Below, one piece after another: positions 2,646-15,061 of a stretch of DNA of 32,000 nucleotides. The notes beneath the pieces were generated by a model, which saw only the letters and a program-made list of their open reading frames with translations, did not search any database and was not told the DNA's origin. The position numbers were made by a program, and so were the translations under genes. Positions within the stretch are counted from its first letter, which is position 1. Every line of letters starts with the position of its first letter. Source of the DNA: Geotalea daltonii FRC-32 (GTDB taxonomy: Bacteria > Desulfobacterota > Desulfuromonadia > Geobacterales > Geobacteraceae); contig NC_011979.1 in assembly GCF_000022265.1 (NCBI RefSeq), positions 1,590,001 through 1,622,000 of the forward strand, in the 5' to 3' direction.

Positions 2646-3257
2646 ATGGGGGCAAACAGGCTGAATATCACCTGGCATGACAGGGTACTGACCAAGGGTG
2701 ACTATCTTAAACGCAATGGGCACCAGCCTTTGGTGTTGTGGTTTACCGGACTTTCAGGGTCAGGCAAATCAACGCTTGCCCATGCCGTTGAAGAAGAGCT
2801 GTTCAGGAAAGGCTGCTATACGTATATACTGGATGGCGACAATATACGCCACGGACTCAACAGCGACCTTGGATTTTCTGAGGCTGACCGGAGGGAGAAC
2901 ATCAGGCGTATCGGGGAAGTTGCCAAGCTTTTTGTTGATGCCGGCATTATAGTTCTGGCAGCATTTATTTCTCCTTACCGGGAAGACCGGGAGAGGGTTC
3001 GGGCACTTTTCGAACCTGCTGAATTTATCGAGGTATTTGTCAATTGCGACCTTGCTGTATGTGAAAGCCGCGATCCGAAAGGGCTTTATCGCAAGGCACG
3101 TTCAGGAGAGTTGAAGCAGTTCACCGGGATCGACAGCCCATATGAAGTGCCTTTTAGCCCCGAGCTGGTTGTCAATACTGCATGCAGTACGGTGAAAAGC
3201 GGTGTCCAGTCGGTGCTTGCATTCGTTAGGGACCGGGGACTGATAAACGGTGATTAG
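2646..3257 (+). CDS. cysC: Adenylylsulfate (APS) kinase
   Basis: AGGAG 6-7 nt upstream of the ATG. Canonical motifs [71 protein letters not shown]. The stop codon TAG (3255-3257) lies inside heptamer array A. Confidence 0.95.
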
Positions 3258-3353
3258 TGATTGGTGATTGGTGAACTCCGAACTTCGAACTTCGAACTTC
3301 GAACCTCGAACCTCGAACCTCGAACTTCGAACGTAAAACGTAGAACCTCGAAT
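3249..3353 (+). repeat. Heptanucleotide tandem array A (15 units in a single 7-nt phase)
   Basis: Read directly: GGTGATT AGTGATT GGTGATT GGTGAAC TCCGAAC TTCGAACx3 CTCGAACx3 TTCGAAC GTAAAAC GTAGAAC CTCGAAT. It starts in the last two codons of cysC and ends 19 nt before the cysD ATG. Confidence 0.95.
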
Positions 3354-3372
3354 TAGCTTACAGGGGTTGAAG

Positions 3373-4170
3373 ATGACGCATCTGGAAGAACTTGAAAATA
3401 AATCTATTTATATATTGCGCGAAGCATACAAGAATTTCGACAATCTCTGTATGCTCTGGTCCATTGGCAAGGATTCGACGGTGATGCTCTGGCTGGTGAG
3501 AAAGGCATTCTTCGGTCACTGTCCGATCCCGCTGGTGCACATCGATACCTCATATAAAATCAAGGAGATGATTGCCTATCGCGATCAATTGGCCGAGGAG
3601 TGGGGGCTGACCCTGGTGGTGGGGCAAAACAAGGATGCTCTGGAAAAAGGCATGAACCCTGCGCTGGGGCGTATGGAATGTTGCACTGCCTTGAAGACTG
3701 AGGGGCTACGACGCACCCTTGCCGATAAAAAATACAATGGAGTCATCGTCGGAGTACGTTCCGACGAAGAGGGTACCAGGGCAAAGGAGCGTTATTTTTC
3801 CCCCAGGGACAAGAACAACGACTGGGACTTCAGGGAGCAGCCCCCCGAGTTGTGGGACCAGTTCAAGACCCGCTTCGAGCCCGGAACCCATGTCCGTATC
3901 CACCCCCTCCTGGATTGGACCGAGATCAATATCTGGGAATATATAAAAAAGGAAAATATTCCGGTGATTCCACTGTATTTCGACCAGGGTAGCGGCAGTC
4001 GCTATCGCAGCCTTGGTTGTGCCCCCTGCACCGGCGCCATCCAGTCCACAGCGAAAACTGTCGATCAAATTATCGAAGAGCTGCGCAATACCAAGGTTGC
4101 AGAGCGTTCCGGGCGCGCCCAGGACGCCGATCGCGGCATGGAAAAATTGCGCAAGGATGGGTACATGTAG
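3373..4170 (+). CDS. cysD: Sulfate adenylyltransferase subunit 2 (PAPS reductase-fold ATP pyrophosphatase)
   Basis: [22 protein letters not shown]..., SIGKDS PP-loop motif, C-terminal [18 protein letters not shown], all typical of CysD. ATG 3373 is preferred over the TTG at 3367 given by the ORF track. Confidence 0.95.
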
Positions 4171-4174
4171 AGGC

Positions 4175-4202
4175 GGTGATTGGTGATTGGTGATCGGTGG
4201 AA
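4175..4202 (+). repeat. Heptanucleotide array B (GGTGATT GGTGATT GGTGATC GGTGGAA)
   Basis: Starts 4 nt after the cysD stop with the junction AGGCGGTGATTGGTGATT and ends 2 nt before the ATG of the four-helix-bundle gene. Confidence 0.9.
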
Positions 4203-4204
4203 GT

Positions 4205-4585
4205 ATGTCTGGGGATCGGCCTAAAGCTAGAAGTCATAAAGACCTTCAGGTGTGGCAGCGAGCAATGTCTTTGGTGGTGTCCCTTTATGAATTGCTCAGG
4301 TCTTTTCCTGCCGATGAACGCTTCGGCTTGGTTGACCAGATCAAGCGTTCGGCTATCTCCATCCCTTCGAATATTGCTGAAGGGGCTGCACGACAGACCT
4401 CAAGAGAATACATTCAATTTCTGTATATCGCTGCCGAGTCAGCGGCAGAGCTTGACACGCAGCTTATACTTGCCCAGAGGCTTGGTTTTTCCACAGAGAT
4501 CGAAACTCAACTGGAAGAATTGCAGATTGTCCGCAAGCAGCTGAACGTAATGATCACAACACTGCGAGCAAACCATGAAAAGTGA
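4205..4585 (+). CDS. Four-helix-bundle protein (23S rRNA intervening-sequence protein family; Avd-like)
   Basis: [85 protein letters not shown] is the hallmark sequence of this family. ATG 4205 is preferred because the upstream extension (4187) only reads through the repeat. Confidence 0.9.
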
Positions 4586-6434
4586 AAAATCACCAGGCAC
4601 CATTCACCAATCACCAACGTCCAATCACGAATCACGACGAATTACGAATCACCAATCACGAATCACCAATCACCAATTTTTACAAGTGGTTTTCGTCGGC
4701 CATGTGGACCATGGCAAATCTACCCTGCTCGGCCGCATTTACGCCGACACCGATTCCCTTCCCGTCGGCCAATTGGAAAAGGTACGGGCAATTTGCGAGC
4801 AGCAGGGAAAGACATTCGAATATGCCTTTCTTTTCGATGCCTTTCTTGAAGAGCAAGAGCAGGGAATCACCATTGACACTGCCCGCACATTTTTCAACTG
4901 GGGCAACAGGCACTACATAATCATCGATGCCCCAGGCCACAAAGAATTCCTCAAGAACATGATATCCGGTGCAGCAAGGGCGGAGGCCGCAGTTCTTATC
5001 ATCGATGCAGCCGAAGGGGTTGCGGAGCAGTCGAAACGTCACGGTTACATGCTGAGTTTGCTGGGGATCAGGCAGATAGCCGTAGTCGTAAACAAGATGG
5101 ATCTCGTAAATCATGATCAAAAAGTTTTTGAAGCAATAGTTACCGAATACTCAGCCTTCCTTAAAGAGCTCGGTGTCACACCGCGTCAATTCGTTCCTGC
5201 CAGCGCCAGAAACGGAGATAACGTGGTCACGGGCAGTGATGCCATGCCCTGGTATGACGGCCCTACCGTTTTGGAATCTCTCGGCCGTTTCGAAAAACTG
5301 CCCAGTGGAGAAGAATTGCCGTTGCGTTTTCCGGTGCAGGACGTCTATAAATTCGATGCCCGCCGGATCATTGCCGGCCGGGTCGCTGCAGGTATGTTGA
5401 AGGTCGGCGACAGTCTGGTCTTTTCCCCTTCCAACAAGACGGCGGTGATCAAAACCATCGAGGCTTTCAATGTTGCCCATCTGCCTCTTTCTGCCGGAGT
5501 CGGCAAATCTACCGGCTTCACTCTGGACGAACAGATTTTTGTCGAACGTGGCGAGGTAGCATCGCTGAAGGAATCCTTGCCGGAGGTAACCGACCTCTTC
5601 CGCGCCAATCTCTTCTGGATGGGCAAAAATCCCATGGTCGGCAATCGTCCCTATCTGCTTCGCCTGGCAACGAAGGAAGTGGAAATGGAGCTGGCCGAAA
5701 TCCATCGCATCATCGATGCCGGCAGCCTTGACCCGGTAATGGCCAGGGAGCAGATAGAAAAGAATGACGTCGCCGAAGTCACCATAAGAACTAAAAAGCC
5801 TCTGGCTCTGGATTGTTTTTGCGACTGCGACATCACCGGGCGTTTCGTCGTTGTGGATGGCTATGATGTTTGCGGTGGGGGCATCGTCACCCAGGTACTG
5901 GACAACGACCAGGAGACCTTTCGCCGGGAGGCCAGGCAGCGCGATATTGCCTGGCGCCGCGGAGAAGTGCAACTTGGCGAGCGGGTGCAACGGAACGGGC
6001 ACAACCCGGGCATCATCCTCTTTACGGGAGAAAGCGGCACCGGCAAGGCCCGCCTTGCACGTCATCTGGAGCGCCGGCTTTTCGATGGCGGGCGTCAGGT
6101 GTATCTCCTTGATGGGAAGAACCTGCTTCTCGGGCTTGGCTCCGACGTCACCGAACAAGACAAGGAGGAGATGGTCCGGCGGTTCGGCGAAGTTGCCCAG
6201 ATTCTGTTGCGAGCCGGGCAGATTGTGGTATCGACCACCAATACCTTTGCCCAGGCAGATCATCAGATCATCAGCACCCTTGTTTATCCCCACCAGGTAA
6301 TTTCCGTGCACATGTCCTTTGCCAGGGGGGCTGTACCGGAAAAAACCGATCTCCGCTTTCTCGAATCGGACGACCTGAAAAAGGCCGCCAAACAGATTGT
6401 GGAGAAGATGGAAGAGTTGGGGATCCTGCTGTAA
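4575..6434 (+). CDS. cysN: Sulfate adenylyltransferase subunit 1 (GTPase) fused to a degenerate APS-kinase-like C-terminal domain
   Basis: [15 protein letters not shown] (G1), DAPGH, NKMD motifs and EF-Tu-like domains II/III. The C-terminal ~150 aa resemble CysC but with altered motifs. Start is uncertain: ATG 4575 translates array C as a 35-aa extension, and the only alternative is GTG 4686, just 4 codons before GHVDHGKS. Confidence 0.9.
4588..4674 (-). repeat. Heptanucleotide array C, reverse orientation (AATCACC-type, 12 units plus a 3-nt ACG insertion)
   Basis: AATCACC AGGCACC ATTCACC AATCACC AACGTCC AATCACG AATCACG [ACG] AATTACG AATCACC AATCACG AATCACC AATCACC. This is the reverse complement of the GGTGATT family and lies between the four-helix-bundle stop (4585) and the conserved CysN G-domain. 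Confidence 0.95.
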
Positions 6435-6438
6435 AGGC

Positions 6439-6589
6439 GGTGATTGGTGATACTTCGGTGATTGGTGATTGGTGAAGGGTGAAGGGTGAAGGGTGAAGGG
6501 TGAAGGGTGAAGGGTGAAGGGTGAAGGGTGAAGGGCACGACCTCGAACATGGAACATAGAACGTAGAACATAGAACATAGAACATAGAA
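6439..6589 (+). repeat. Heptanucleotide array D (composite)
   Basis: GGTGATT GGTGATA [CTTC] GGTGATT GGTGATT (GGTGAAG)x9 GGCACGA CCTCGAA CATGGAA CATAGAA CGTAGAA (CATAGAA)x3. The 19 units 6457-6589 share one phase. It begins 4 nt after the cysN TAA with AGGCGGTGATTGGTGAT and ends 19 nt before the wzm ATG. Confidence 0.95.
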
Positions 6590-6608
6590 CGGATTTTGCG
6601 GGGTAAAG

Positions 6609-7421
6609 ATGCAAGCATTAAGGATGTTCAGTAACTTCATTGCCGAATTGTGGTCGCGTCGGCACATGATCATCGAGCTGGCAAAACGGGATTTCAAAAC
6701 CAAGTACCTCGGCTCTTACCTGGGGATGCTCTGGGCTTTTGTTCACCCGACAGTGTATATAATTATTCTCTGGTTCGTTTTTCAGGTGGGCTTCAAGTCA
6801 CAGCCCCAGGCCAATTATCCGTTCGTCCTCTGGATGATGTGCGGCATCGTTCCCTGGTTCTTCTTCAGTGAATGCCTGCAGAGCGCTACCATGTCCATCA
6901 TCGACAACAGCTTTCTTCTTAAAAAGATGGCTTTCAGCATCGGCATGCTTCCCATCGTCAAAATTCTCTCCGCGCTGGTAATCCACTTTTTCTTTATCCT
7001 GGTCGTTTTCGTCATGATCCTTCTCTATGGGCTGCCGATTTCCCTTCACAGCCTGCAGGTTTTTTACTACCTGTTCGCCGCCATAACACTGCTCCTTGGC
7101 CTGTCCTGGCTTACATCCTCACTGGTGGTTTTCCTCAGGGATGTGGGGCAATTGGTTGCCATGGCTTTGCAGTTCGCCTTCTGGGTGACCCCCATCTTCT
7201 GGTCGGCAAAGATCCTCCCCGATAAGTACGCTAACCTGGTCAAGCTCAACCCTGTCTACTACCTGGTGGAAGGCTACCGGGAAAGCTTCATCTACAAGAC
7301 CTGGTTTTGGGAGAGCCACTATGTGCTGACCCTCTATTTTTGGGCTGTTACCGGCATTATTTTTGTGCTGGGTGCGGTCGTGTTCAGGAGGCTGCGGCCA
7401 CATTTCGCGGATGTTTTGTAG
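6609..7421 (+). CDS. wzm: ABC-2 type polysaccharide export permease
   Basis: N-terminal ELWSRRHMIIELAKRDFKTKYLGSYLGMLWAFVHP signature and six predicted hydrophobic helices, typical of Wzm/KpsM/TagG. Confidence 0.9.
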   Translation: MQALRMFSNFIAELWSRRHMIIELAKRDFKTKYLGSYLGMLWAFVHPTVYIIILWFVFQVGFKSQPQANYPFVLWMMCGIVPWFFFSECLQSATMSIIDNSFLLKKMAFSIGMLPIVKILSALVIHFFFILVVFVMILLYGLPISLHSLQVFYYLFAAITLLLGLSWLTSSLVVFLRDVGQLVAMALQFAFWVTPIFWSAKILPDKYANLVKLNPVYYLVEGYRESFIYKTWFWESHYVLTLYFWAVTGIIFVLGAVVFRRLRPHFADVL

Positions 7422-7423
7422 AC

Positions 7424-7497
7424 GGTGATTGGTGATTAGACGGTGATTGGTGATTGGTGATTGGTGATTGGTGGATGGTGGATGGTGGATGGTGGAG
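7424..7497 (+). repeat. Heptanucleotide array E
   Basis: GGTGATTx2 [AGAC] GGTGATTx4 GGTGGATx3 GGTGGAG. The first 36 nt, including the wzm TAG, form an 18-nt tandem duplication TAGACGGTGATTGGTGAT x2 (7419-7454). Confidence 0.95.
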
Positions 7498-7500
7498 CGC

Positions 7501-7547
7501 TTGACTGATGTCTTACAAAAGAATACAGTGTAAGCACATGTCTTGCA
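7501..7547 (+). promoter_or_regulatory. Putative sigma70-type promoter with palindromic operator for the toxin-antitoxin pair
   Basis: TTGACT (7501-7506), 17 nt, TACAGT (7524-7529). Inverted repeat CTTACA...TGTAAG straddles the -10. Direct repeat ATGTCTT(A/G)CA at 7508-7517 and 7538-7547. GGAGG lies 6 nt before ATG 7564. Confidence 0.5.
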
Positions 7548-7563
7548 TTTTCCGGAGGTAGCC

Positions 7564-7821
7564 ATGCTGAAAGCAGCTAATATAACTGTTCGTATCAAAC
7601 CAACAACCAAGATGCGCATCGATGCCCTGGCGCAGGCTACCAAGCGCTCTAAGTCCTATGTCGTCGAGGAGGCGTTGGAACAGTACCTGGAGGTAAACGA
7701 GTGGCAGGTTAAAGGGATCGAGGCCGCCTTACATGAGGCCGACAGTTCCGATGCTGAATGGGTTGATCATAAAGATGTCCTGGCAAAGTGGGAGGCCAAG
7801 TTTGCGGATAAAGTGGCTTAG
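7564..7821 (+). CDS. Ribbon-helix-helix (CopG/ParD-like) antitoxin
   Basis: MLKAANITVRIKPTTKMRIDALAQATKRSKSYVVEEALEQYL is an RHH fold signature. It overlaps the downstream toxin gene by 20 nt. Confidence 0.8.
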   Translation: MLKAANITVRIKPTTKMRIDALAQATKRSKSYVVEEALEQYLEVNEWQVKGIEAALHEADSSDAEWVDHKDVLAKWEAKFADKVA

Positions 7822-8086
7822 ACAGGCGCTTCTTGATCTCGATGAAGTAGAAAGCTATATTGCCAGGGACAATCCAGTTGCAGCTATAGGTGTGGTAACT
7901 AAAATAGTCAAAATGGTTTCTGTTCTTGAGAAGCAGCCGGGACTTGGTCGTCCTGGTCGCGTCCCAGGCTCCAAGGAACTTGTTATTCCCGATACTCCTT
8001 TCATTGTTCCTTACCGGGTGAAGGATGGCTTGGTGCAGGTATTACGGGTCTATCATACATCAAGAAGGTGGCCAGATAACATTTAG
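7802..8086 (+). CDS. RelE/ParE-family toxin
   Basis: RQALLDLDEVESYIARDNPVAAIGVVTKI...GRPGRVPGSKELVIPDTPFIVPYRV..GLVQVLRVYHTSRRWP is a typical ParE layout. TTG 7802 with GGAGG 6 nt upstream is preferred over ATG 7733, which would overlap the antitoxin by 89 nt. Confidence 0.75.
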   Translation: MRIKWLRQALLDLDEVESYIARDNPVAAIGVVTKIVKMVSVLEKQPGLGRPGRVPGSKELVIPDTPFIVPYRVKDGLVQVLRVYHTSRRWPDNI

Positions 8087-8227: not shown

Positions 8228-8254
8228 TTAGTTGTTGCAGCGGGTTTTATTGTT

Positions 8255-8280
8255 GAACCACCGGTTTCCGTCTACGCTCC
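8255..8280. repeat. Short direct repeat, copy 1 (GAACCACCGGTTTCCGTCTACGCTCC)
   Basis: Shares ACCACCG..TTCCGTCT..CGCTC with 8371-8400. Confidence 0.5.
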
Positions 8281-8370
8281 AGTTAATGGGCAAAAGGCAA
8301 CCTGCTATTTAACGGATGAATTTTTATTTTCGCGATATCAACGTTAATGTATTTCTACTTTCAGCCTGTA

Positions 8371-8691: not shown

Positions 8692-9414
8692 ATGAAAAGT
8701 TTACGGCAGAAAATGTTGGCAATGGCGGCAGTTGTTGCAGTTTCGGGGCTGATGATGGCTTCGGTGGCAGGAGCGGCTCCTAAGTTAATTGTAAAGGATA
8801 ATGCAACACCGACCCCAAATGATGTATTTACAGTAGCAGACGATGGACAAATAACAGCAAAAGATTTGACCTTTAAACCTGCTACAAAGAAATTCGGCTT
8901 TGGCACCAGCAACCCTCAAACATCCCTGCATTTGGTTGAGTTGGCTTCACCATTTGATAGAGGCCTAACCATTGGGCAACATGACGCGGGTACTGCAGCG
9001 GCTGTTATTAACATCAAGAAGTCCTCTGGGACTGATGCTTCCCCTGGGCTGCCTGCATCAGGATCAAACATTGCGGCTTTTCATGCACAAGTATATGACG
9101 GTAACACAACAGTTGCAGGGGCCAACGGTTGGTCTGCAAACGCTAGTTTTTTCTTCACTGCCGAACCGGGAACATATGCAGCTGAGTACATTCCAGTTGC
9201 CATTAGATTTGACACAGGTGTTGCACAGGCACAAAAGAAAGAGCGCCTGAGAATTACTAGTGATGGTCGGCTGCGTATATCAAACCAACCAACCGCACCC
9301 GCGAATAATGCTATCTGCACAGTTGGTGATATGGTACTTGACGCAACAAATGGATTCCTGTATCTTTGTACTGCTACTAACTCTTGGAAAAGAACAAGCT
9401 TTTCCACATATTAG
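8692..9414 (+). CDS. Secreted protein of unknown function (tail-fibre/lectin-like motifs, C-terminal Cys pair)
   Basis: AGGAGG 8 nt upstream. Signal peptide MKSLRQKMLAMAAVVAVSGLMMASVAGAAP. Motifs FGFGTSNPQTSLHLV and ERLRITSDGRLRISN. C-terminal CTVGDMVLDATNGFLYLCTATNSW. Confidence 0.75.
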   Translation: MKSLRQKMLAMAAVVAVSGLMMASVAGAAPKLIVKDNATPTPNDVFTVADDGQITAKDLTFKPATKKFGFGTSNPQTSLHLVELASPFDRGLTIGQHDAGTAAAVINIKKSSGTDASPGLPASGSNIAAFHAQVYDGNTTVAGANGWSANASFFFTAEPGTYAAEYIPVAIRFDTGVAQAQKKERLRITSDGRLRISNQPTAPANNAICTVGDMVLDATNGFLYLCTATNSWKRTSFSTY

Positions 9415-9464
9415 TCACTATAGAGATTGATTGTTTAATAGACTGAAATGGGGACTGAAATGGG

Positions 9465-9495
9465 GGCGATTACAGCATTGTAATCGCCTCTTTTC
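9465..9495 (+). terminator. Rho-independent terminator after the secreted-protein gene
   Basis: Perfect 10-bp stem GGCGATTACA / TGTAATCGCC with loop GCAT, followed by TCTTTTC. It is preceded by a 12-nt tandem duplication GACTGAAATGGG x2 (9441-9464). Confidence 0.7.
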
Positions 9496-9524
9496 ATAAT
9501 CAGATTTAAATTTATTTTGGCGGA

Positions 9525-10544
9525 ATGATCATGAAGCTGGTGCAAATGGTTCAGAAGGTAAAAAATATTTGTCTTAACAATGTAGAAAAAACAAACACTA
9601 TGGCGCAAAGACATTATAAATTTGCATATATAGAACCTGTCAGAGCATGTCCGGTAAAGTGTATTCCTTGTCCTGTTGGCCGAAACGTACTTTTTAAGCA
9701 TCCTGTGGTGGTCTTGGATCTGGAGATTGCTCGCAGGTGTTTTGCAAAGCTCAGGGGACAATTCGGTATAGATACATTAATAATGGGGAATTGGGGGGAG
9801 CCATTACTTCATCCGCAATTCCCTGAACTCGTGCAGCTGGCTAGGAGTTCAGGGTTTAGACAGATAGAAGTATCAACTTCACTTTCAGTAAAATGCGATA
9901 TGGCTAGTATTATAGGTGCAGGGCTAGACTGTATCCAGATTTCTATGTCAGGAATAACAAAAGACGTTTACAATCAAAGTCACAGATTTGGAGACTTTGA
10001 CCTTATATTTAAGAATCTTGAATCTTTAGTCAGTCTTAATAAAGTAAAAACTACCCCGGCTGGCATTGTTATTCGCTGGCATCGTTATCACCATAATGAA
10101 GCTCAGTTTGAGGCAGTAAGCAACTTTTGTAAAGATCTTGGCTTAGGTCTATTGCCATACTTCGGCCATCTCGGTAGTATAGAGGCTATGCGGGACTGGT
10201 CCAATCATCAACTTGAAGAACCTCTTAAATCTTTTGTTTATAACTCTGTCTTTACTGAATTTATAGAAAAAGCATGTATTCTAAATAAAGGGGCCACAAA
10301 TTGTAAGCAGTCGGAGTTTGTGGTTTTAGATGCCGACGGTTCGTTGGTATTTTGTTGCTCTTGCTATAAAAACTACAAAACGAATGCTCCCTTTCTAGCG
10401 ATGAGTGCAAGCGAGATAGAATCTTTTAAATCCCCCAATTCAACTATTTGCAGTCTTTGTCTTGGTAGCGGCTGGTCTGGGTATATGAATAGACCAAAGA
10501 CACTGGAGGAGTATGATGGGTGCATTTCTTTGGGCGCAACATAG
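9525..10544 (+). CDS. Radical SAM enzyme with SPASM/twitch-like C-terminal Cys cluster
   Basis: CPVKCIPC (CxxxCxxC), GNWGEPLLHP (GGE-type SAM motif), C-terminal CKQSEFVVLDADGSLVFCCSC (C-x11-G-x4-C) and CSLC. Start is uncertain (9525, 9531 or ATG 9600, which lies 12 codons before the Cys motif). Confidence 0.85.
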   Translation: MIMKLVQMVQKVKNICLNNVEKTNTMAQRHYKFAYIEPVRACPVKCIPCPVGRNVLFKHPVVVLDLEIARRCFAKLRGQFGIDTLIMGNWGEPLLHPQFPELVQLARSSGFRQIEVSTSLSVKCDMASIIGAGLDCIQISMSGITKDVYNQSHRFGDFDLIFKNLESLVSLNKVKTTPAGIVIRWHRYHHNEAQFEAVSNFCKDLGLGLLPYFGHLGSIEAMRDWSNHQLEEPLKSFVYNSVFTEFIEKACILNKGATNCKQSEFVVLDADGSLVFCCSCYKNYKTNAPFLAMSASEIESFKSPNSTICSLCLGSGWSGYMNRPKTLEEYDGCISLGAT

Positions 10545-10705
10545 GGGTCTATGAGTATGTATGCGTTAGAGGCAAAAGAAGGACCTACCACTGCAGATCG
10601 TCGCACACGGCGTCCGTGCTCTAAATTAACAATTTCAATATCTATAAGGAACCACTCAAAATAATTAATAAGCCTAAGGCGGGAGCAGCCCAGGAAATTC
10701 TAATT

Positions 10706-12037
10706 ATGAGTCACGATAGGCAAATCGCAATTGCAGTAAAAAATCTAACCAAAGTCTACAAGCTTTACGATACCCCATTGGACCGAGTTAAAGAGTCGAT
10801 AAATCCATTTAGCCGGAAGTATCACAAAGATTTCTATGCGCTCAATGATGTAAGCTTTGACATTGAAAAGGGATCCACTATTGGTATTATCGGCAAAAAT
10901 GGATCAGGTAAATCAACTCTTCTCAAAACAATAACAGGAGTGCTGACACCATCAAGTGGTAGTGTTACTGTCAATGGAAAAATTTCTGCTCTGCTTGAGC
11001 TAGGCGCAGGGTTTAATACTGAGTTGACAGGTATTGATAACATTTACTTTAATGGGACCCTCCAAGGGTACACTAAAGATGAGATAGATTTAAAGTTAGA
11101 TGAAATTCTATCTTTTGCGGATATTGGAGAGTTTGTGTTTCAACCTGTCAAAAGCTATTCAAGCGGCATGTTTGTTCGGTTGGCTTTTGGAGTGGCAATC
11201 AATGTTGATCCTGATATATTAATCGTTGATGAAGCTCTGGCAGTAGGGGATATAAAATTTCAGCGCAAGTGTTTTTCCAAGATCGAAGAATTTCATAAGA
11301 AAGGTAAAACTATAATTTTTGTTTCGCACGGTTTAGATACAATCAACCTTCTCTGCGACACTGCATATCTGCTTGATGGAGGCAGATTGATTGAAGAAGG
11401 CCTGCCCAAGAATGTTACTAAAGTATATCAAAAAATGATGTTAGGCGAAGACACTATTAGTTCTACAACGGACGTATGTTTGGGAAAAGAGTTAGAATTC
11501 CTATACGACCTACCGTCTGAGCAGGATTGTGAGTTTTATACAAATGAATACGACACCCAGAAATTAAACGAATTAGTTAAAGATAAAATCCAAAAGTGGG
11601 ACGGCCATAAAAAGGCAGAAATCATAGATTGTGGTATTTGGGATGCGCTGGGTAATAAAGTCACTCTTCTGGAATGTGGTGCACATTACACTTTTTATTC
11701 GAAGATACTTATTCATGTAGATTTAGAAGTCATACATGTTGGTTTCCCTATCAAAAATGTTAAAGGCCTAATGCTTTTTGGTGTAAACAGCGAGATACAA
11801 AAAGTTGCAGTTACGCCAAAAACAAAGGGAAATGTTGTTGAGGGTCGTGTCGACGTTACGATGTGGCTGGCGCCAGGCAATTATTTTCTCTCGTTTAGAG
11901 CTGCTACAAGACAGGAAGTTTTCGACGAGTTGAATGATCAAGTACACTTTGTTGTAACAGGCGGCAACCATACCCTCAATGCTCTTTCCGTAGTGAATTT
12001 GGAGCCAAAGGTGACCCTCAGAACTTTGGCTTTCTAA
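10706..12037 (+). CDS. wzt: Polysaccharide export ABC transporter ATP-binding protein with C-terminal carbohydrate-binding (Wzt_C-like) domain
   Basis: Walker A GKNGSGKST, signature SYSSGM, Walker B ILIVDE, H-loop VSHG. An extra ~170-aa beta-rich C-terminal domain (AEIIDCGIWDALGNKV...GNYFLSFRAA...VHFVV) matches terminus-recognising Wzt proteins. Confidence 0.9.
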   Translation: MSHDRQIAIAVKNLTKVYKLYDTPLDRVKESINPFSRKYHKDFYALNDVSFDIEKGSTIGIIGKNGSGKSTLLKTITGVLTPSSGSVTVNGKISALLELGAGFNTELTGIDNIYFNGTLQGYTKDEIDLKLDEILSFADIGEFVFQPVKSYSSGMFVRLAFGVAINVDPDILIVDEALAVGDIKFQRKCFSKIEEFHKKGKTIIFVSHGLDTINLLCDTAYLLDGGRLIEEGLPKNVTKVYQKMMLGEDTISSTTDVCLGKELEFLYDLPSEQDCEFYTNEYDTQKLNELVKDKIQKWDGHKKAEIIDCGIWDALGNKVTLLECGAHYTFYSKILIHVDLEVIHVGFPIKNVKGLMLFGVNSEIQKVAVTPKTKGNVVEGRVDVTMWLAPGNYFLSFRAATRQEVFDELNDQVHFVVTGGNHTLNALSVVNLEPKVTLRTLAF

Positions 12038-12129
12038 GGATGACAGCTGAAGGCTCTGTTCAAATTTAATGTTGTTTTCGGGGTTTTTTAAAAATAATAA
12101 AACAACCCTCAGGAGTGTCCGCCTTACTT

Positions 12130-12936
12130 ATGGGATTAAAATTATCGTTATTCAGACCAGAATCAAAGCCAATTGAAAAATCCTTCGTATTTATAACAGG
12201 AACGCCTCGTTCAGGCACATCAATGCTAACAAAAGTTATTGATGCGCATCCAGATGCTGCGATCTTGATGGAAAATCTCTTTGGAAATAGACGTAGGCAC
12301 TGGGAGCGTGCAAGCTTCTGGAATGAACCTCAATTATTACAGGCAGAGATTGAAAAAGTATATTCTCCTTTCAAACAGCAACTGATTGGCAACAAGGTTT
12401 GTACTCCTGATGTTTGGTCAGCTGAGGACATAGTAACCTTTTGCCAGTTTTTTTCAGATTCCAAATTCATCTTCATTGTCAGAGATCCAATAGAAGTAGC
12501 ACTTTCAAGATTCAGGCGGGAAAATTATGATAAAGAATTTAATTCTTTCGCAAGACAGCATATGCAATTAGACTTCAGAAGCAGATCTTTTACCTATACA
12601 TCTTCATGGGCAGGCAGCATCCAAAATTATTGGTTTCTCAAAGAGCTTTTTCCAACTAAAACACTACTTATTTATTACGATGACTTTTGCAACACGTTTG
12701 AAGATCATTTACATACATTAGTTGATTTCCTTGATCTCCCTTTCTCAGAAAAAATGCTTAAATGGCATGAACTACCACATCATGACTCAGAAGGGGTTTT
12801 ACAGGTTAACTTAAAATACGATGATGAGCCGGTTTTTGTTAACAAAAGCAAGAGTTCGTCCCTTACTGACGAACTAATGTTGGCAATGGCCACTATTGAA
12901 CCATTGTATAATCGGTGGAAGAAGAGATCTCTCTGA
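12130..12936 (+). CDS. PAPS-dependent sulfotransferase family protein
   Basis: 5-prime-PSB loop FITGTPRSGTSML and 3-prime-PB segment FIVRDPIEVALSRF. The ORF track starts at GTG 12115, which overlaps the AGGAG, so ATG 12130 is preferred. Confidence 0.8.
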   Translation: MGLKLSLFRPESKPIEKSFVFITGTPRSGTSMLTKVIDAHPDAAILMENLFGNRRRHWERASFWNEPQLLQAEIEKVYSPFKQQLIGNKVCTPDVWSAEDIVTFCQFFSDSKFIFIVRDPIEVALSRFRRENYDKEFNSFARQHMQLDFRSRSFTYTSSWAGSIQNYWFLKELFPTKTLLIYYDDFCNTFEDHLHTLVDFLDLPFSEKMLKWHELPHHDSEGVLQVNLKYDDEPVFVNKSKSSSLTDELMLAMATIEPLYNRWKKRSL

Positions 12937-12983
12937 AATAGTATGTTTTCTGTAGGGCTAAGTTCTAAAAAAAGGATGGAAAT

Positions 12984-13355
12984 ATGAGTACAAAGCAACT
13001 CTCTAGTGTTAAGATCATGTCCTTTGGATTTAAGTATGGCAGCCCAAACGCAAATTACTATTTTGATGTGGGCTTTATAAAAAATCCAGCAAGGGATCCG
13101 AAATGGAATTTTTTTTCTACGCCTGATGAAGAAATGCGCAACTTCGTGCTGAGCCAGAAACCTGTTGTTGAATTTTTAAAGTATATAATCCCCCTCATAA
13201 AAATACTGGCACCTCTTGATCAAGCCCAAGTTTTCGCTTTTGGTTGTAATTCTGGTCGCCATCGCAGTTATATTCTAGTTGAGGAGATTGCTCGCCAGCT
13301 AAAAGAGTGCGGGGTGCCCGCTAAAATCGTACACCGTGAGGATGATTTACAGTGA
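12984..13355 (+). CDS. Stand-alone RapZ (YhbJ/YvcJ) C-terminal-domain-like protein
   Basis: SFGFKYGSPNANYYFDVGFIKNPARDPK and AFGCNSGRHRSYILVEEIARQL match, from memory, the RapZ C-terminal segments [29 protein letters not shown] and AIGCTGGKHRSVYIAEQLA. Only 12 residues precede the first motif, so the P-loop N-domain is absent. Confidence 0.75.
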   Translation: MSTKQLSSVKIMSFGFKYGSPNANYYFDVGFIKNPARDPKWNFFSTPDEEMRNFVLSQKPVVEFLKYIIPLIKILAPLDQAQVFAFGCNSGRHRSYILVEEIARQLKECGVPAKIVHREDDLQ

Positions 13356-14287
13356 GCTCTAATAATGAACGTATTTGGTGCCCTAGCGGCGAACTTAGAC
13401 CCTTAAGTTTTGCACAGGCCCCGAAAAAAGACCTTGCATTTATCGTCGTAAACCGAAATCGTCGCGATTTGACTGACTATCTCTGTCACCAGATTCTCAA
13501 TTTTACGAACACTACGGATCTAACTTATGATCTGTTTGTAGTTGATATCGGTTCGGAACCTGCCCAACGTAGCCCTTTTACCACCATTGAATACGAAGAT
13601 AGCGACTTTCGAGGCAAGTGTTATGCACACAATGTAGGGGTGCGTCAAGCGGCATTAACCGCTGATTACCGTTATTATTGGGCTATGATGAATGACCTAC
13701 GTTTTGATGGGCAGCCAGATGCTATGATGCGGATGATAGAATTAATGGACAGTAATCCAGAAATTGGAATTTTAAGCCCTACAAATATTGGGGAAGGTAA
13801 GGAATATCCTGGTGCTGATCCACAACCAGGACACGTATTTAGAAAGGTGCCGGTGTGCGATTATCTTGCACTTATGTTGCGTGGCCAAGTCTTGCATGAG
13901 GTAGGATTTCTTAACCCCGAATTTCGCTATTGCTGGGGAGCGATACATGAACTGTCATATAAGGTATACCGTACAGGTAAATGGTCTATTGCGTATTGTG
14001 ATACTGTTCATTATGAACATTTAGGTGGCACTACCTATGGTAAGACAAAAAATGTTGTTAGCCGCGACGAATACACATTGAATGCAAAAAGGTTCGCAGC
14101 TTCTTACTTTGTGAAGCAATACGGGCGGGACTGGGATGAAAAATTTACAGATGCATTGCCTACAGATGTCACCTTAAAAGAAACGTACTCACGTCATCGA
14201 ACCTACTGGGAGGAATCTTTAGTTTCTGAAAAAAATTGCCGTAATTCCTTTTTTCATAATATCTGGCGAAAAATCAAAAATGGCTGA
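13352..14287 (+). CDS. GT2-like glycosyltransferase (divergent)
   Basis: GTG start overlaps the upstream TGA (GTGA). LAFIVVNRNRRDLTDYL...LFVVDIGSEP...AHNVGVRQAA...MMNDLRF follows the GT-A fold order, but the DxD is atypical. Confidence 0.6.
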   Translation: MSSNNERIWCPSGELRPLSFAQAPKKDLAFIVVNRNRRDLTDYLCHQILNFTNTTDLTYDLFVVDIGSEPAQRSPFTTIEYEDSDFRGKCYAHNVGVRQAALTADYRYYWAMMNDLRFDGQPDAMMRMIELMDSNPEIGILSPTNIGEGKEYPGADPQPGHVFRKVPVCDYLALMLRGQVLHEVGFLNPEFRYCWGAIHELSYKVYRTGKWSIAYCDTVHYEHLGGTTYGKTKNVVSRDEYTLNAKRFAASYFVKQYGRDWDEKFTDALPTDVTLKETYSRHRTYWEESLVSEKNCRNSFFHNIWRKIKNG

Positions 14288-15061
14288 ATGGGCATTATGA
14301 AGAATTGTATTATTTTGGGATCAGGAAGAAGTGGCACAAGTATGGTTGCCGGTACTTTGGCGAAATCAGGCTACTTTATGGGGGATAACCTTTATCCAGC
14401 CCGAGAAAGCAATCCTAAGGGGTTTTTCGAAGACCCATTTATAAATGGTATAAACGAGGAAATTTTAGAAAGGATGTGCTTTGGCGCCGTAGAGAGCATC
14501 AAAAGGAAATTAAGCGGTATACGATTGACAGATGGGCAGAGATGGCTAGAGAAGATACCACTGGATGCTAGACTTCCTTCGTCTATGGCACTAACAGAGA
14601 AAATACTAACGGCTGTAAATAAGGCACCTTTCTGCTATAAAGATCCGCGGTTTAGCTATACCCTACCGATTTGGCGTCCTTACTTACAAAACACGGTCTT
14701 CATTTGCGTATTTCGAGAACCTACTGTCACAGCACAAAGCATTATCAAAGAGTGCAGCGCGATGGAATATTTAAAGTCAGTTAAAATGAGTTTTAAGTAC
14801 GCCTTGGAAATTTGGTTCCATATTTACAACCACATACTTACGACTCATATTCATGAGGGAGAGTGGCTGTTTCTGCATTATGATCAGGTGCTGAGTTTTG
14901 ATGGAGCTTCGAGAATAGAGGCGATTGCAGAATCGGCCACAGACAAATCGTTTCCAGAAGAACAATTTAAACGTTCTTCTTCAACTTTAGAATGCCCAAG
15001 TAAACATCGAAAAATGTATGCCCAGTTGTGTGAATTAGCAAGATATCAGCCATCTTATTAG
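14288..15061 (+). CDS. PAPS-dependent sulfotransferase family protein
   Basis: ILGSGRSGTSMVAG (5-prime-PSB loop) and VFREPTVTAQSIIKE (3-prime-PB). The ATG directly abuts the upstream TGA. Confidence 0.8.
   Translation: MGIMKNCIILGSGRSGTSMVAGTLAKSGYFMGDNLYPARESNPKGFFEDPFINGINEEILERMCFGAVESIKRKLSGIRLTDGQRWLEKIPLDARLPSSMALTEKILTAVNKAPFCYKDPRFSYTLPIWRPYLQNTVFICVFREPTVTAQSIIKECSAMEYLKSVKMSFKYALEIWFHIYNHILTTHIHEGEWLFLHYDQVLSFDGASRIEAIAESATDKSFPEEQFKRSSSTLECPSKHRKMYAQLCELARYQPSY

Follow-up and report, generated by a model that had tools for sequence, protein, structure and literature searches.

A predicted sulfated surface glycan locus in Geotalea daltonii FRC-32 linking sulfate activation to ABC export

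Overview of the locus

What is the role of sulfate-activation genes that lie beside a polysaccharide exporter? The window (the whole stretch of 32,000 nucleotides analyzed here) of Geotalea daltonii FRC-32 carries cysC, cysD, cysN, and wzm on its plus strand, followed after 3.3 kb by wzt, the gene for ST1 (Geob_1448), the gene for ST2, and about 14 glycosyltransferase genes (Table 1). Because PAPS genes adjoin an ABC exporter and two sulfotransferases, a sulfated cell-surface polymer is the most likely product. Hence, with a probability of roughly 0.7, the locus encodes an O-polysaccharide–type surface glycan that depends on an ABC transporter and bears sulfate esters. Gene identities, motifs, predicted folds, and conserved synteny are the observations on which this reading builds; all genes named in an earlier sequence-only reading of this DNA were recovered at their positions on the plus strand by profile matches and translations. 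Literature searches returned no chemical evidence of sulfate esters in Geobacteraceae glycans, and neither an initiating transferase nor a ligase is present in the window.

In the proposed mechanism, CysD and CysN would convert sulfate and ATP to APS, powered by GTP hydrolysis, and the stand-alone CysC would phosphorylate APS to PAPS. Working at the inner membrane from its cytoplasmic side, the glycosyltransferases would assemble the chain on a lipid carrier, and ST1 and ST2 would sulfate it while still in the cytoplasm, with PAPS as donor. Wzm/Wzt would export the finished chain, completed chains being selected by the C-terminal carbohydrate-binding domain of Wzt. Herein, the sulfate acceptor, how many sulfates are added and where, the lipid carrier, and the final attachment site (LPS, capsule, or protein) are matters of inference. 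The core of this scheme, namely cytoplasmic synthesis and sulfation with locally made PAPS followed by Wzm/Wzt export, had been put forward before and is supported by the recurring linkage of cysC-cysD-cysN with wzm, wzt, and sulfotransferase genes, by the adjacency of wzt and ST1, and by structural matches.

Table 1. Features of the window with their positions and the profile matches that identify them
Feature	Position	Strand	Evidence
cysC, canonical APS kinase (APS to PAPS)	2646..3257	+	APS_kinase 238 bits; NCBIfam adenylyl-sulfate kinase 306.9 bits (cut-off 163)
cysD, ATP sulfurylase small subunit	3367..4170	+	PAPS_reduct 149 bits; PRK05253 CysD 379 bits (cut-off 195)
23S-rRNA-IVP four-helix-bundle gene	4187..4585	+	PF05635 119.8 bits
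cysN, ATP sulfurylase GTPase subunit	4575..6434	+	GTP_EFTU 148 bits and eEF1A_C; TIGR02034 333.7 bits
wzm, ABC-2 permease	6609..7421	+	ABC2_membrane 69.5 bits
RHH antitoxin and ParE toxin pair	7543..8086	+	RHH_1 31.8 bits; ParE_toxin 55.7 bits
Secreted hypothetical protein (signal peptide), first low-GC cassette gene	8692..9414	+	
Radical-SAM enzyme, Cys-rich C terminus	9525..10544	+	Radical_SAM 33.9 bits; CxxxCxxC in translation
wzt, ABC ATPase with C-terminal Wzt_C carbohydrate-binding domain	10706..12037	+	ABC_tran 78 bits; Wzt_C 90.5 bits
ST1 (Geob_1448), TPST/NodH-type PAPS-dependent sulfotransferase (predicted)	12130..12936	+	Sulfotransfer_3 73.4 bits
Stand-alone RapZ C-terminal-domain protein	12984..13355	+	PapZ_C 89.5 bits
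Hypothetical 311-aa protein, translationally coupled to ST2	13352..14287	+	
ST2, divergent sulfotransferase-like protein	14288..15061	+	Sulfotransfer_3 22.7 bits (below cut-off 27)
GT2a, family-2 glycosyltransferase	15086..16123	+	Glycos_transf_2 78.9 bits
Hypothetical protein, C-terminal coiled coil	16235..17224	+	Only coiled-coil matches, residues 232-312
Three GT2 glycosyltransferases, end of 40% GC cassette	17252..20039	+	Glycos_transf_2 97-130 bits each
RmlD-like reductase, FnlA-like 4,6-dehydratase/5-epimerase, WecB-like 2-epimerase	20036..23081	+	rmlD 98.6 bits; TIGR04130 FnlA 564 bits (below cut-off 730); wecB 242 bits
One hypothetical protein, three GT4 and three GT2 glycosyltransferases, ~50% GC	23181..29987	+	Pfam matches

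Sulfate activation

CysC aligns with Arabidopsis APK1 over its full length (E 1.7e-62) with every motif kept. Its P-loop and its KGLY...FTGIDSPYE lid are complete, in line with its earlier description as fully canonical. CysD shares 85% identity with its Geomonas oryzisoli orthologue. CysN has a C-terminal APS-kinase–like domain; its match spans profile positions 4-118 of 152 and scores only 57 bits. Compared with CysC (36% identity), the domain reads LDGK for LDGD and STTNT for FISPY and lacks the lid; judged by its residues, this tail is degenerate and probably noncatalytic. The first ~35 residues of CysN are encoded by imperfect heptamer repeats (4588-4677). The three cys genes are co-oriented, as had been described, but they are not contiguous, since the 23S-rRNA-IVP gene splits cysD from cysN. 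This gene, probably outside the pathway, occupies the same site in Geotalea uraniireducens, Geotalea sp. SG265, and the MAG L107 and is absent from the Geomonas loci compared.

The cys genes might belong to housekeeping assimilatory sulfate reduction and neighbor the glycan locus by chance, with PAPS for the sulfotransferases as a by-product; cysCDN could be the sole sulfate-activation genes and also serve cysteine synthesis. Consistent with this, the GC content of cysC-cysD-cysN-wzm matches the flanks, and the left-flank synteny of the block is kept in Geotalea. In Geotalea uraniireducens, neither wzm nor wzt is found within 10 kb of cysCDN, and IS elements come next. Loci of ST1 and ST2 homologues in other phyla manage without local cys genes: outside Geobacteraceae, none lies within 10 kb at 14 ST1 loci or, one weak match aside, at 80 ST2 loci. 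However, the linkage persists through three gene orders, with cysCDN adjoining wzm/wzt and sulfotransferase genes in five of seven informative Geobacteraceae loci. Geotalea sp. SG265, a Geotalea-like MAG, Geomonas oryzisoli, and Geomonas propionica all combine cysC-cysD-cysN with wzm/wzt and between one and three sulfotransferases. G. daltonii, SG265, and L107 share the order cysC-D-N-wzm...wzt-ST; the genes run wzm-cysC-D-N-wzt-MT-ST...ST2...ST in Geomonas oryzisoli and wzm-MT-wzt-...-ST-ST-cysC-D-N in Geomonas propionica. Chance linkage is hard to reconcile with cysCDN lying between wzm and wzt in the former Geomonas species and after the sulfotransferases in the latter. Moreover, cysH, sir, cysQ, cysK, and sulfate-transporter genes are all missing from the window, and a canonical stand-alone cysC is kept next to a CysN with a decayed kinase domain. 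The same signature is found in published clusters for sulfated capsules, those of the marine bacteria Vibrio sp. KMM 8419 and Cobetia marina KMM 1449, which contain cysNDC, sulfotransferase genes, and a KpsMT ABC exporter (PMC11641403, PMC11766843). According to these studies, PAPS genes and sulfotransferases inside the cluster are the hallmark of capsules whose sulfation has been proven chemically (PMC11641403, PMC11766843). The G. daltonii locus resembles them in its cys genes, sulfotransferases, and ABC exporter, the latter being Wzm/Wzt instead of KpsMT. These clusters also weaken the novelty claim of the sequence-only reading, which knew of no genetically defined sulfated glycan with cysDNC physically coupled to wzm/wzt. 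A purely housekeeping role is therefore considered unlikely. Gene-order comparison supports a functional link among cysCDN, exporter, and sulfotransferases; the cys genes, termed dedicated in the sequence-only reading, may serve only the glycan pathway.

Sulfotransferases ST1 and ST2

ST1 is identical in sequence to Geob_1448 of Geotalea daltonii FRC-32 and is confidently predicted to be a sulfotransferase from its sequence and modeled fold. The motifs GTPRSGTS...VRDPIEVALS, read previously, are present in its translation, and PRSGTS, E48, and R118-x7-S126 are invariant across 30 homologues. The family profile matches TPST with an E-value of ~1e-15; its PRSGT loop, invariant Glu48, and RD...S motif align with the matching stretches of TPST1. 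The AF2 model (pLDDT 94.8) has its best PDB matches in TPST1/2 (TM 0.67), and all PDB matches with E <1e-3 are PAPS-dependent sulfotransferases. ST1 homologues were compared in 14 species-level genomes, which represent at least eight phyla or classes. Of these genomes, 10 carry wzm-wzt upstream of the ST1 homologue, which directly follows wzt (within ~160 nt) in eight of these 10. An ST2 homologue lies 2-8 kb downstream of it in nine of the 14.

Because tyrosylprotein sulfotransferases are closest to ST1 by both sequence and structure, ST1, and perhaps ST2, might sulfate a nonglycan acceptor: a tyrosine of a secreted protein or peptide (as RaxST and TPST), a lipid, or a small molecule. The cassette does encode a secreted protein (8692-9414), which has no match in Pfam, NCBIfam, or PDB and whose homologues (~27% identity) precede ST-ST2-GT2a in three loci (L020, L021, L023). 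However, none of the 14 ST1 loci encodes a homologue of it; there, ST1 homologues are tied to wzt. Both ST1 and ST2 are surrounded by glycosyltransferases, and the window contains no peptidase-type ABC exporter, membrane fusion protein, or short precursor gene. PF13469 also includes the carbohydrate sulfotransferase NodH (PMC11625862); therefore, the acceptor is not fixed by family membership. A nonglycan acceptor is regarded as highly improbable.

Two sulfotransferases had been proposed; ST1 passes Sulfotransfer_3, whereas ST2 stays below the Pfam cut-off, although its PAPS motifs are kept family-wide. The GSGRSGTS...FREPTVTAQS motifs described for ST2 occur in its translation. Its subthreshold score would also fit a P-loop kinase-like or noncatalytic scaffold protein that only resembles a sulfotransferase. 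Likewise, the AF2 model (pLDDT 93.3) reaches TM values of only 0.40-0.49 in Foldseek, and nucleoside-monophosphate kinases are among the weaker matches. Yet all 15 PDB matches with E <1e-3 are sulfotransferases. In the family of 1,114 matches, many of which pass PF13469 in precomputed annotation, the GSGRSGTS loop is at least 90% conserved (M19 invariant), and R143 and S151 of the 3'-phosphate motif R143-x7-S151 are invariant. The loop GRSGTS is of the sulfotransferase RSGT type, unlike the Walker A GK[ST]. An inactive ST2 is thus very unlikely.

ST2 travels with recurrent partners. The block of RapZ C-terminal-domain protein, 311-aa protein, ST2, and GT2a is kept in the metagenome locus L022 at 56-73% identity. 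The 311-aa protein has no significant match in Pfam or PDB and is possibly a GT-A–like transferase; its homologues stand beside ST2 in L022 (66% identity) and L044 (54%). GT2a matches an HpsE-like family best in NCBIfam, at 164 bits and short of that family's cut-off; it directly follows ST2 in L020, L021, L022, L023, L026, L031, L068, L071, and L076. In L020, ST2-GT2a occurs together with a different ABC exporter of the lipid-linked-glycan type and a cysC gene. Of 43 metagenome loci with ST2 that span 7 kb or more, 19 have wzt nearby, and wzt directly precedes ST2 in at least 12 loci.

Export and possible chain termination

Wzm is 70% identical to its counterpart in Geomonas oryzisoli and 73% to that in L024. 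Wzt shares 58% identity with Geomonas oryzisoli Wzt, and 53% over the C-terminal domain alone. The Wzt_C domain is found in terminal-cap systems such as E. coli O8/O9a and Klebsiella O12. In E. coli O9a, WbdD adds a methyl-phosphate cap, and in Klebsiella O12, WbbB adds a β-Kdo cap. By analogy, sulfate might be a chain-terminating cap instead of, or besides, a repeat-unit decoration: the sulfotransferase encoded directly after wzt would sulfate the nonreducing terminal sugar, which would halt polymerization and form the epitope bound by the Wzt C-terminal domain before export.

Apart from the Wzt_C domain itself, this proposal draws on gene position, as the wbdD/wbbB place directly after wzt is held by ST1 homologues in the eight genomes and by ST2 in the at least 12 loci given above. 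Wzt_C-like C-terminal domains are present in nine of nine sampled neighboring Wzt proteins, and the window has no SAM-methyltransferase, kinase, or Kdo-transferase terminator. In Aeromonas salmonicida, the sulfotransferase-domain ORF19 directly follows wzt, yet the O-antigen structure was reported without sulfate; a lone terminal sulfate, invisible to repeat-unit NMR, could account for this puzzle. However, in ST1-linked loci the Wzt C-terminal domain matches that of G. daltonii at only 25-30% identity and with marginal E-values; the best matches of the G. daltonii domain, in Geomonas oryzisoli and SG265, come from loci without ST1. Therefore, the domain does not track ST1. Several related loci have methyltransferases beside or fused to wzt, which are more conventional cap-makers, and ST1 lacks a coiled-coil ruler. 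In-cluster PAPS genes also fit a single sulfate per chain less well than a high, stoichiometric demand. A terminal cap is a minor possibility.

Mosaic organization and evolution

The locus is a mosaic of a conserved cysCDN-wzm block (51.9% GC from cysC to wzm) and a wzt/sulfotransferase cassette (40.0% at 8692-20039), with 50.4% GC beyond. The GC drop indicates separate histories for the two halves. The earlier term "fused," for the PAPS and export genes, was overstated in view of this mosaic and of the 3.3-kb spacer that separates wzm from wzt. This spacer contains heptamer repeats, the RHH/ParE pair, the secreted hypothetical protein, and the radical-SAM gene. The toxin–antitoxin pair sits at the GC boundary and is a junction marker and no part of the pathway; the radical-SAM enzyme, possibly involved in sugar modification, is not conserved among ST1 loci.

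Downstream, the coiled-coil protein is a candidate chain-length or assembly scaffold, and the genes at 20036..23081 are predicted to provide a route to UDP-2-acetamido-2,6-dideoxy-L-hexose. The genes at 23181..29987 may belong to the same glycan. In evolutionary terms, cysC-cysD-cysN-wzm may be read as a conserved Geotalea/Geomonas backbone, onto which the wzt-sulfotransferase-glycosyltransferase part would have been horizontally acquired as a swappable serotype cassette.

Gene content and mosaic architecture

The locus probably builds a sulfated lipid-linked glycan with locally made PAPS and exports it by Wzm/Wzt, a reading to which we assign a probability of about 0.7. Herein, CysDN and CysC would synthesize PAPS, a lipid-linked chain would be built by cytoplasmic glycosyltransferases and sulfated by ST1 (the predicted sulfotransferase Geob_1448) and ST2 (a divergent sulfotransferase-like protein), and Wzm/Wzt would export the sulfated chain. 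Acceptor sugars, positions and stoichiometry of the sulfate groups, the lipid that carries the chain, and the site to which it is finally attached are inferred. The sequence-only reading had proposed the same interpretation; it is supported in substance by gene identities, motifs, folds, and synteny, and every element that it named was found in its place.

Nearly all window ORFs between 2.6 kb and 30 kb lie on the plus strand, and their domains were assigned by Pfam and NCBIfam profile scans (see table). The window CysC is 100% identical to the APS kinase of G. daltonii FRC-32 (chromosome of 4.3 Mb), and the ST1 sequence matches Geob_1448 of that organism, formerly Geobacter daltonii, at 100% identity. 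The GC content amounts to 51.9% from cysC to wzm, 40.0% at 8692-20039, and 50.4% beyond. Because of this mosaic, the cassette of wzt, sulfotransferase, and GT2 (family-2 glycosyltransferase) genes and the cysCDN-wzm backbone are taken to be of different origin. The PAPS genes had been described as contiguous with wzm and fused to a Wzm/Wzt locus; wzt, however, lies 3.3 kb beyond wzm, with unrelated genes and repeats in between. The RHH antitoxin and ParE toxin genes sit exactly at the start of the GC fall, and in a Geotalea-like MAG (locus L107) a PDDEXK_3 gene and small ORFs take their place in the wzm-wzt spacer. The spacer has the appearance of a recombination junction at which serotype cassettes are exchanged.

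Features of the predicted sulfation and export locus, in window coordinates
Feature	Position (nt)	Strand	Basis
cysC	2646-3257	+	profile scan
cysD	3367-4170	+	profile scan
23S-rRNA-IVP four-helix-bundle gene (bAvd-like)	4187-4585	+	profile scan
cysN	4575-6434	+	profile scan
wzm	6609-7421	+	profile scan
RHH/ParE toxin-antitoxin pair	7543-8086	+	profile scan
Secreted hypothetical protein, 240 aa	8692-9414	+	
Radical-SAM gene	9525-10544	+	profile scan
wzt	10706-12037	+	profile scan
ST1	12130-12936	+	profile scan
Stand-alone RapZ C-domain protein, 123 aa	12984-13355	+	profile scan
hyp311, 311-aa hypothetical protein	13352-14287	+	
ST2	14288-15061	+	Sulfotransfer_3 below cut-off
Four GT2 genes and coiled-coil protein	15086-20039	+	
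RmlD-like/FnlA-like/WecB-like trio	20036-23081	+	profile scan
Six further GT4/GT2 genes	ending 29987	+	profile scan

The gaps among cysC, cysD, the IVP gene, cysN, and wzm are occupied by heptanucleotide tandem arrays. Arrays of 3.6 to 12 copies, built from several different units, are found in the window at 3249-3352, 4175-4199, 4588-4677, 6471-6590, 7424-7496, and 31130-31219. The first ~35 residues of CysN are encoded by the array at 4588-4677, which falls within the 5' end of the cysN ORF; as a period of seven is not a multiple of three, a change in copy number within the ORF would shift the frame. Geotalea uraniireducens (L102) and Geotalea sp. SG265 (L103) carry arrays at matching positions with other unit sequences, some of them perfect and up to 32 copies long. 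From the sequence, phase variation of sulfation via these arrays is conceivable. Heptanucleotide repeats have earlier been noted in G. metallireducens (PMC2700814).

The IVP gene overlaps the start of cysN by 11 nt. It is also found between cysD and cysN in G. uraniireducens, SG265, and the MAG, is absent from Geomonas, and has a second copy downstream in G. uraniireducens. Immediately upstream of cysC, on the minus strand (432-2444), a gene encodes a large exported β-propeller (lactonase/YncE-like) protein with an InlB B-repeat-like domain. It is kept in all Geotalea loci (L001, L102, L103, L106, and L107), and ahead of it lie GT2-GT2-GT4 genes, a gene for a ~740-aa hypothetical protein, and a multiheme cytochrome gene. 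An Rfam scan of the whole window yielded no riboswitch or other RNA family and hence no clue as to whether cysC is regulated by sulfur or SAM. Consensus scans for promoters and terminators stayed at background level and are uninformative on operon structure.

Sulfate activation

CysD (379 bits, cut-off 195), the CysN GTPase, and a canonical APS kinase form a complete predicted sulfate-activation set in the window. With 306.9 bits, CysC is above the cut-off of 163; its alignment with Arabidopsis APK1 spans the full length, and its P-loop, DGD, FISPY, and lid motifs are intact, in agreement with its earlier description as fully canonical. CysN reaches 333.7 bits on TIGR02034, just below the cut-off of 336.1, and 148 bits on GTP_EFTU. 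Its C-terminal APS-kinase-like domain is 36% identical to CysC and is degenerate, having lost the Asp of DGD (LDGK), the FISPY motif (replaced by STTNT), and the lid; hence the retention of a separate, intact cysC. The domain (5880-6434, the C-terminal third of CysN) keeps a GxxGxGK loop and also occurs in CysN proteins of Geomonas and other Geotalea. Fungal ATP sulfurylase has a noncatalytic kinase-like domain, and by analogy the domain of CysN may be a regulatory or structural remnant.

The two predicted sulfotransferases

ST1 is a predicted PAPS-dependent sulfotransferase by profile, motif, and modeled fold. In keeping with its assignment by the sequence-only reading, it passes Sulfotransfer_3 (PF13469; 73.4 bits, cut-off 27) and also Sulfotransfer_1 (PF00685; 39.2 bits, cut-off 22). 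Among 30 homologs of 35-55% identity, the PSB loop keeps P26, R27, S28, G29, and S31 without exception and T30 in at least 90%, and R118, P120, and S126 of the 3'-phosphate motif R-x7-S are likewise invariant. The AlphaFold model has a pLDDT of 94.8, and the 50 best matches to it in the PDB are enzymes of the sulfotransferase fold in complex with PAP or PAPS. The closest of these structures are the tyrosylprotein sulfotransferases TPST1/2 (TM 0.67, E 1e-10); curacin, olefin-synthase, and cytosolic sulfotransferases come next. The ST1 family profile also retrieves TPST1/2 by sequence (E ~1e-15), in an alignment that matches up the PRSGT loop, the RD...S motif, and the invariant Glu48; E48 is paired with the Glu in the GEET stretch of TPST1, the catalytic base of that enzyme. 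The public ST1 gene model starts at 12130 and comprises 268 aa, and an exact-sequence look-up of ST1 from a GTG start at 12115 gave no match.

The resemblance of ST1 to TPST would also suit an acceptor other than a glycan, e.g. tyrosine. However, NodH is a PF13469 sulfotransferase as well (PMC11625862), and the gene context is wholly that of a glycan; a nonglycan acceptor is considered highly improbable. A RaxST-like peptide sulfation was rejected despite the TPST-like enzyme, given the neighboring wzm/wzt and glycosyltransferase genes. The window contains no gene for a membrane fusion protein, a C39-peptidase ABC exporter, or a conserved precursor.

ST2 is probably a divergent member of the sulfotransferase superfamily, as judged from its motifs. 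Its earlier assignment as a sulfotransferase stands with respect to the conserved PSB loop and R-x7-S motif but fails on the profile, as Sulfotransfer_3 gives 22.7 bits, under the cut-off of 27. In 28 sequences, G11, G13, R14, G16, T17, and S18 of the PSB loop GSGRSGTS reach 90% conservation or more, and M19 is invariant, as are R143, P145, T148, and S151 of R-x7-S. Homologs amount to 1,114 matches, many of them with a precomputed PF13469 annotation. The AlphaFold model has a pLDDT of 93.3, and all 15 PDB matches with E <1e-3 are sulfotransferases, yet with TM scores of only 0.40-0.49; P-loop kinases appear among the matches with E >3e-3. That ST2 is inactive or something other than a sulfotransferase is regarded as very unlikely. 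Public ST2 gene models start at 14297 (254 aa) or later, and an exact-sequence look-up from the ATG at 14288 gave no match.

Exporter, glycosyltransferases, and further cassette genes

Wzm shows an ABC2_membrane domain (69.5 bits), and Wzt combines ABC_tran (78 bits) with a C-terminal Wzt_C domain (90.5 bits), the composition of a predicted ABC-dependent O-polysaccharide exporter. The window holds at least ten GT2/GT4 genes in addition to the FnlA-like, RmlD-like, and WecB-like genes, and the latter three suggest a 2-acetamido-2,6-dideoxy-L-hexose in the chain. Neither an undecaprenyl-phosphate initiating transferase nor a WaaL ligase is encoded within the 32 kb window; in other bacteria these genes are often located elsewhere.

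Four hypothetical proteins (8692-9414, 13352-14287, 16235-17224, and 23181-24146) yielded only a coiled coil in PDB and permissive Pfam/NCBIfam searches. The protein of 16235-17224 (329 aa) has a C-terminal coiled coil of ~80 residues followed by SVTWKMMTPLRK, and the protein of 23181-24146 (321 aa) has a similar motif, SSTTWRFTAPIRG, behind a short N-terminal helix. Since known ABC-dependent O-antigen systems use coiled coils as chain-length rulers, both are candidate rulers.

The secreted protein of 8692-9414 has no family or PDB match. Homologs of ~27% identity occur in three unrelated metagenome loci (L020 8124-8951, L021 3091-3849, and L023 19-~700), where they lie upstream of a sulfotransferase gene and of homologs of ST2 and of GT2a, the glycosyltransferase encoded directly after ST2. 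The protein might serve as an acceptor, act as a periplasmic partner, or be a component of the surface. Encoded just upstream of wzt, the radical-SAM protein combines a CxxxCxxC motif with a Cys-rich C-terminal region and has weak relatives (~32% identity) in the metagenome ST2 loci L020 and L026. A role as anaerobic sulfatase maturase was rejected, with no such NCBIfam match and no sulfatase gene nearby. The small protein encoded after ST1 consists of a RapZ C-domain (89.5 bits) and is missing the kinase-like N-domain of RapZ; binding of a sugar-phosphate or of sulfate is conceivable. The four-gene block RapZC-hyp311-ST2-GT2a is kept at 56-73% identity in metagenome contig L022 (RapZC at 66-434).

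Linkage within and beyond Geobacteraceae

In five of seven informative Geobacteraceae loci, cysCDN lies beside wzm/wzt and at least one sulfotransferase gene, in three gene orders and with a different glycosyltransferase content each time; one further contig with a CysC orthologue ends too early and stands outside these seven. The MAG has the same plan as the window, i.e. cysC-cysD-IVP-cysN-wzm, a ~3 kb spacer, wzt (with Wzt_C), and a sulfotransferase. The order in SG265 is cysC-cysD-IVP-cysN-wzm-x-Wzt (methyltransferase-fused)-x-sulfotransferase-GT10. In Geomonas oryzisoli, the PAPS genes are placed between wzm and wzt (wzm-cysC-cysD-cysN-wzt-methyltransferase-sulfotransferase), and GT-methyltransferase-ST2 homolog-GTs-sulfotransferase follow. 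Geomonas propionica (L105) shows wzm-MT-Wzt (methyltransferase-fused)-MT-GT-sulfotransferase-sulfotransferase-cysC-cysD-cysN-GTs. The cysCDN block of G. uraniireducens is present but followed by IS elements, and cysC-cysN of Geomonas limicola adjoins a different polysaccharide locus. Linkage that is kept in varied orders and with varying glycosyltransferases is a pattern of selection for co-inheritance, and it marks sulfation as the predicted constant feature of an otherwise variable glycan. The sequence-only reading had called this PAPS supply dedicated, which it may be; that the cys genes are plain housekeeping genes is rather unlikely. Neither cysH nor sir is found within the window. The literature on Geobacter cysD/cysN yielded no information on sulfate assimilation in Geobacter.

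The fused Wzt proteins of SG265 (L103 16203-18278) and G. propionica (L105 4404-6464) comprise 686-691 aa, with ABC_tran and Wzt_C followed by a C-terminal SAM-methyltransferase. One polypeptide herein combines the exporter with a probable chain-modifying enzyme.

Beyond this family, genes of the ST1 family occur in 14 species-level genomes, with hosts among Clostridia, Anaerolineales, Phycisphaerae, Acidobacteriota, Aminicenantes, Bacteroidales, Saprospiraceae, Gammaproteobacteria, and others. Ten of the 14 carry wzm-wzt upstream of the ST1 homolog, eight of these ten with ~160 nt or less from the end of wzt to the start of ST1, and in nine of the 14 an ST2 homolog follows 2-8 kb downstream. 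The metagenome set of ST2 comprises 80 loci, of which 43 are at least 7 kb long, and 19 of these 43 have wzt nearby. The ST2 homolog lies directly 3' of wzt in at least 12 metagenome loci, and in two loci a single methyltransferase gene comes between them. All nine sampled neighboring Wzt proteins have a Wzt_C-like C-terminal domain (20-84 bits). At 90% identity, the families comprise about 70 (ST1) and >1,100 (ST2) clusters, and by gene order both are positionally tied to Wzt_C-bearing ABC exporters in Clostridia, Chloroflexota, Planctomycetota, Acidobacteriota, Bacteroidota, and Proteobacteria. Apart from a weak cysC-like match in metagenome locus L083, no cysC, cysD, or cysN was found within 10 kb of the non-Geobacteraceae ST1/ST2 loci; hence, the recruitment of PAPS genes into the locus is a feature of Geobacteraceae. 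In L020, ST2-GT2a lies beside an MsbA/PglK-like ABC exporter and a cysC gene, which fits sulfation of a lipid-linked glycan before export.

Chain termination

No window ORF contains a domain of a conventional terminator (WbdD-like kinase/methyltransferase or WbbB-like Kdo transferase); candidate terminators are ST1, ST2, the radical-SAM protein, and the coiled-coil protein of 16235-17224. In characterized systems, Wzt_C is present where a terminal cap exists, and the cap-making wbdD or wbbB lies directly after wzt. Examples include wzm-wzt-wbdD of E. coli O9a and wzm-wzt-wbbB of Klebsiella O12 and Raoultella, where the cap is read by the C-terminal domain of Wzt. Known caps are methyl, methyl-phosphate, or β-Kdo, added by WbdD or WbbB with coiled-coil rulers. 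The window shares with these systems Wzm and a Wzt with C-terminal carbohydrate-binding domain, a modifying-enzyme gene directly after wzt, cytoplasmic glycosyltransferases, and a conserved wzm next to a variable wzt and transferase part. However, the gene after wzt encodes a 268-aa single-domain sulfotransferase instead of a WbdD or WbbB with coiled-coil ruler.

The sulfate ester could itself be the cap at the nonreducing end: the product of the gene after wzt (ST1 family, or ST2 family in other lineages) would end polymerization, Wzt_C would read the cap as the signal for export, and cysCDN would have been recruited into the Geobacteraceae locus to supply it. ST1 and ST2 homologs hold the slot of wbdD and wbbB, in keeping with this, as is the lack of a conventional terminator. 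A terminal sulfate would also explain Aeromonas salmonicida A450, where ORF19 of the ABC-dependent wb O-antigen cluster, a 216-aa sulfotransferase-domain ORF directly downstream of wzt and ahead of a WbbB-type protein, is conserved among strains and left unexplained by the authors, with no sulfate seen in the O-antigen repeat unit (PMC4483657). ORF19, likened to ST1 and ST2 by description only, has the same position after wzt and may share the wzt-linked sulfotransferase theme. On the other hand, the Wzt binding domain does not co-vary with ST1. In tblastn searches with Wzt residues 266-443, ST1-linked loci reached only 25-30% identity with marginal E-values, the best matches being Geobacteraceae without ST1, and the cap hypothesis thus gains no support from this test. 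In addition, methyltransferases lie beside or are fused to wzt in several relatives, and a PAPS supply inside the locus points to a high sulfate demand. A literature search found no sulfate cap (sulfate terminus plus Wzt binding module) described for ABC-dependent glycans. A sulfate cap is a doubtful reading.

Comparison with known sulfation systems

The sulfated capsules of Vibrio sp. KMM 8419 (2024) and Cobetia marina KMM 1449 (2025) are proven by NMR, and their clusters contain cysN/cysD/cysC, sulfotransferases, glycosyltransferases, and a KpsMT ABC exporter (PMC11641403, PMC11766843). The cys genes of Vibrio are second copies, as its authors state, and those of Cobetia, accompanied by cysQ and a sulfate permease, lie between kps operons; PAPS genes plus sulfotransferases are named in the Vibrio paper as a hallmark of sulfated polysaccharide synthesis (PMC11641403, PMC11766843). 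The window is alike in its in-cluster PAPS genes, sulfotransferases, glycosyltransferases, and ABC-2-type exporter, and in a conserved transport and PAPS part adjoining a variable part of lower GC content. In contrast to their KpsMTED/KpsSC machinery and Kdo-lipid primer, it has Wzm and a Wzt with Wzt_C; no kps genes were found in the window (KpsM model 29.9 bits against a cut-off of 300, no match to KpsS, KpsC, KpsE, or KpsD). Moreover, these two are Gammaproteobacteria with NMR-proven sulfate, whereas the window comes from an anaerobic, metal-reducing member of the Geobacteraceae, in which a sulfated glycan is predicted from genes. The sequence-only reading knew of no coupling of cysDNC with wzm/wzt; for wzm/wzt the literature searches likewise found none, but the general design is published (PMC11641403, PMC11766843). 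Because PAPS genes, sulfotransferases, and an ABC exporter are already described for Vibrio and Cobetia, the advance lies in breadth and exporter class, not in concept. A direct prior description of a sulfotransferase with Wzt/Wzm was not found in the literature, nor were structural data or a sulfated glycan for Geobacter/Geobacteraceae.

An older functional analog is rhizobial Nod-factor sulfation with nodPQ (cysDN/C paralogs), the sulfotransferase gene nodH, and the ABC-2 exporter genes nodIJ. As proposed for the window, NodH sulfates a lipid-linked glycan in the cytoplasm ahead of ABC-2 export. The rhizobial substrate, however, is a chitin lipo-oligosaccharide from NodABC, and the window is without NodA, NodB, and NodC (NodC model 22.8 bits against a cut-off of 550). 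In addition, the kinase domain of NodQ is active, whereas the CysN tail of the window is degenerate and cysC is separate. Further genetically defined sulfotransferases for capsule, LPS, or EPS are KpsS of Mesorhizobium loti, LpsS of Sinorhizobium, and those of the synechan xss cluster of Synechocystis, the last a Wzx/Wzy-type route. To our knowledge, these loci have no cysDNC genes of their own. As bacterial surface-polysaccharide sulfotransferases, they are likened to those of the window by description only; M. loti KpsS is cited in PMC11625862. The window locus differs from known systems by exporter class (Wzm and binding-domain Wzt, no kps) and lineage, and is further set apart by two uncharacterized sulfotransferase families and the decayed CysN kinase domain.

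Biological significance

As a module found across phyla, the pairing of wzt with a sulfotransferase gene offers a useful lead: the two wzt-tied families provide a simple genomic marker for sulfated bacterial glycans and a testable explanation for orphan sulfotransferase ORFs next to wzt, as in A. salmonicida. If the sulfate were a cap, it would add a third chemical class to the terminators of ABC-dependent glycans, one spread over many phyla. If the predicted sulfated glycan is made, Geotalea and Geomonas species, subsurface Fe(III)- and U(VI)-reducing bacteria that include G. daltonii FRC-32, would bear a strongly anionic, sulfated surface. Such a surface could influence how metals and radionuclides are sorbed, how cytochromes and minerals are retained on the cell, how well the biofilm conducts, and how phages recognize their host.
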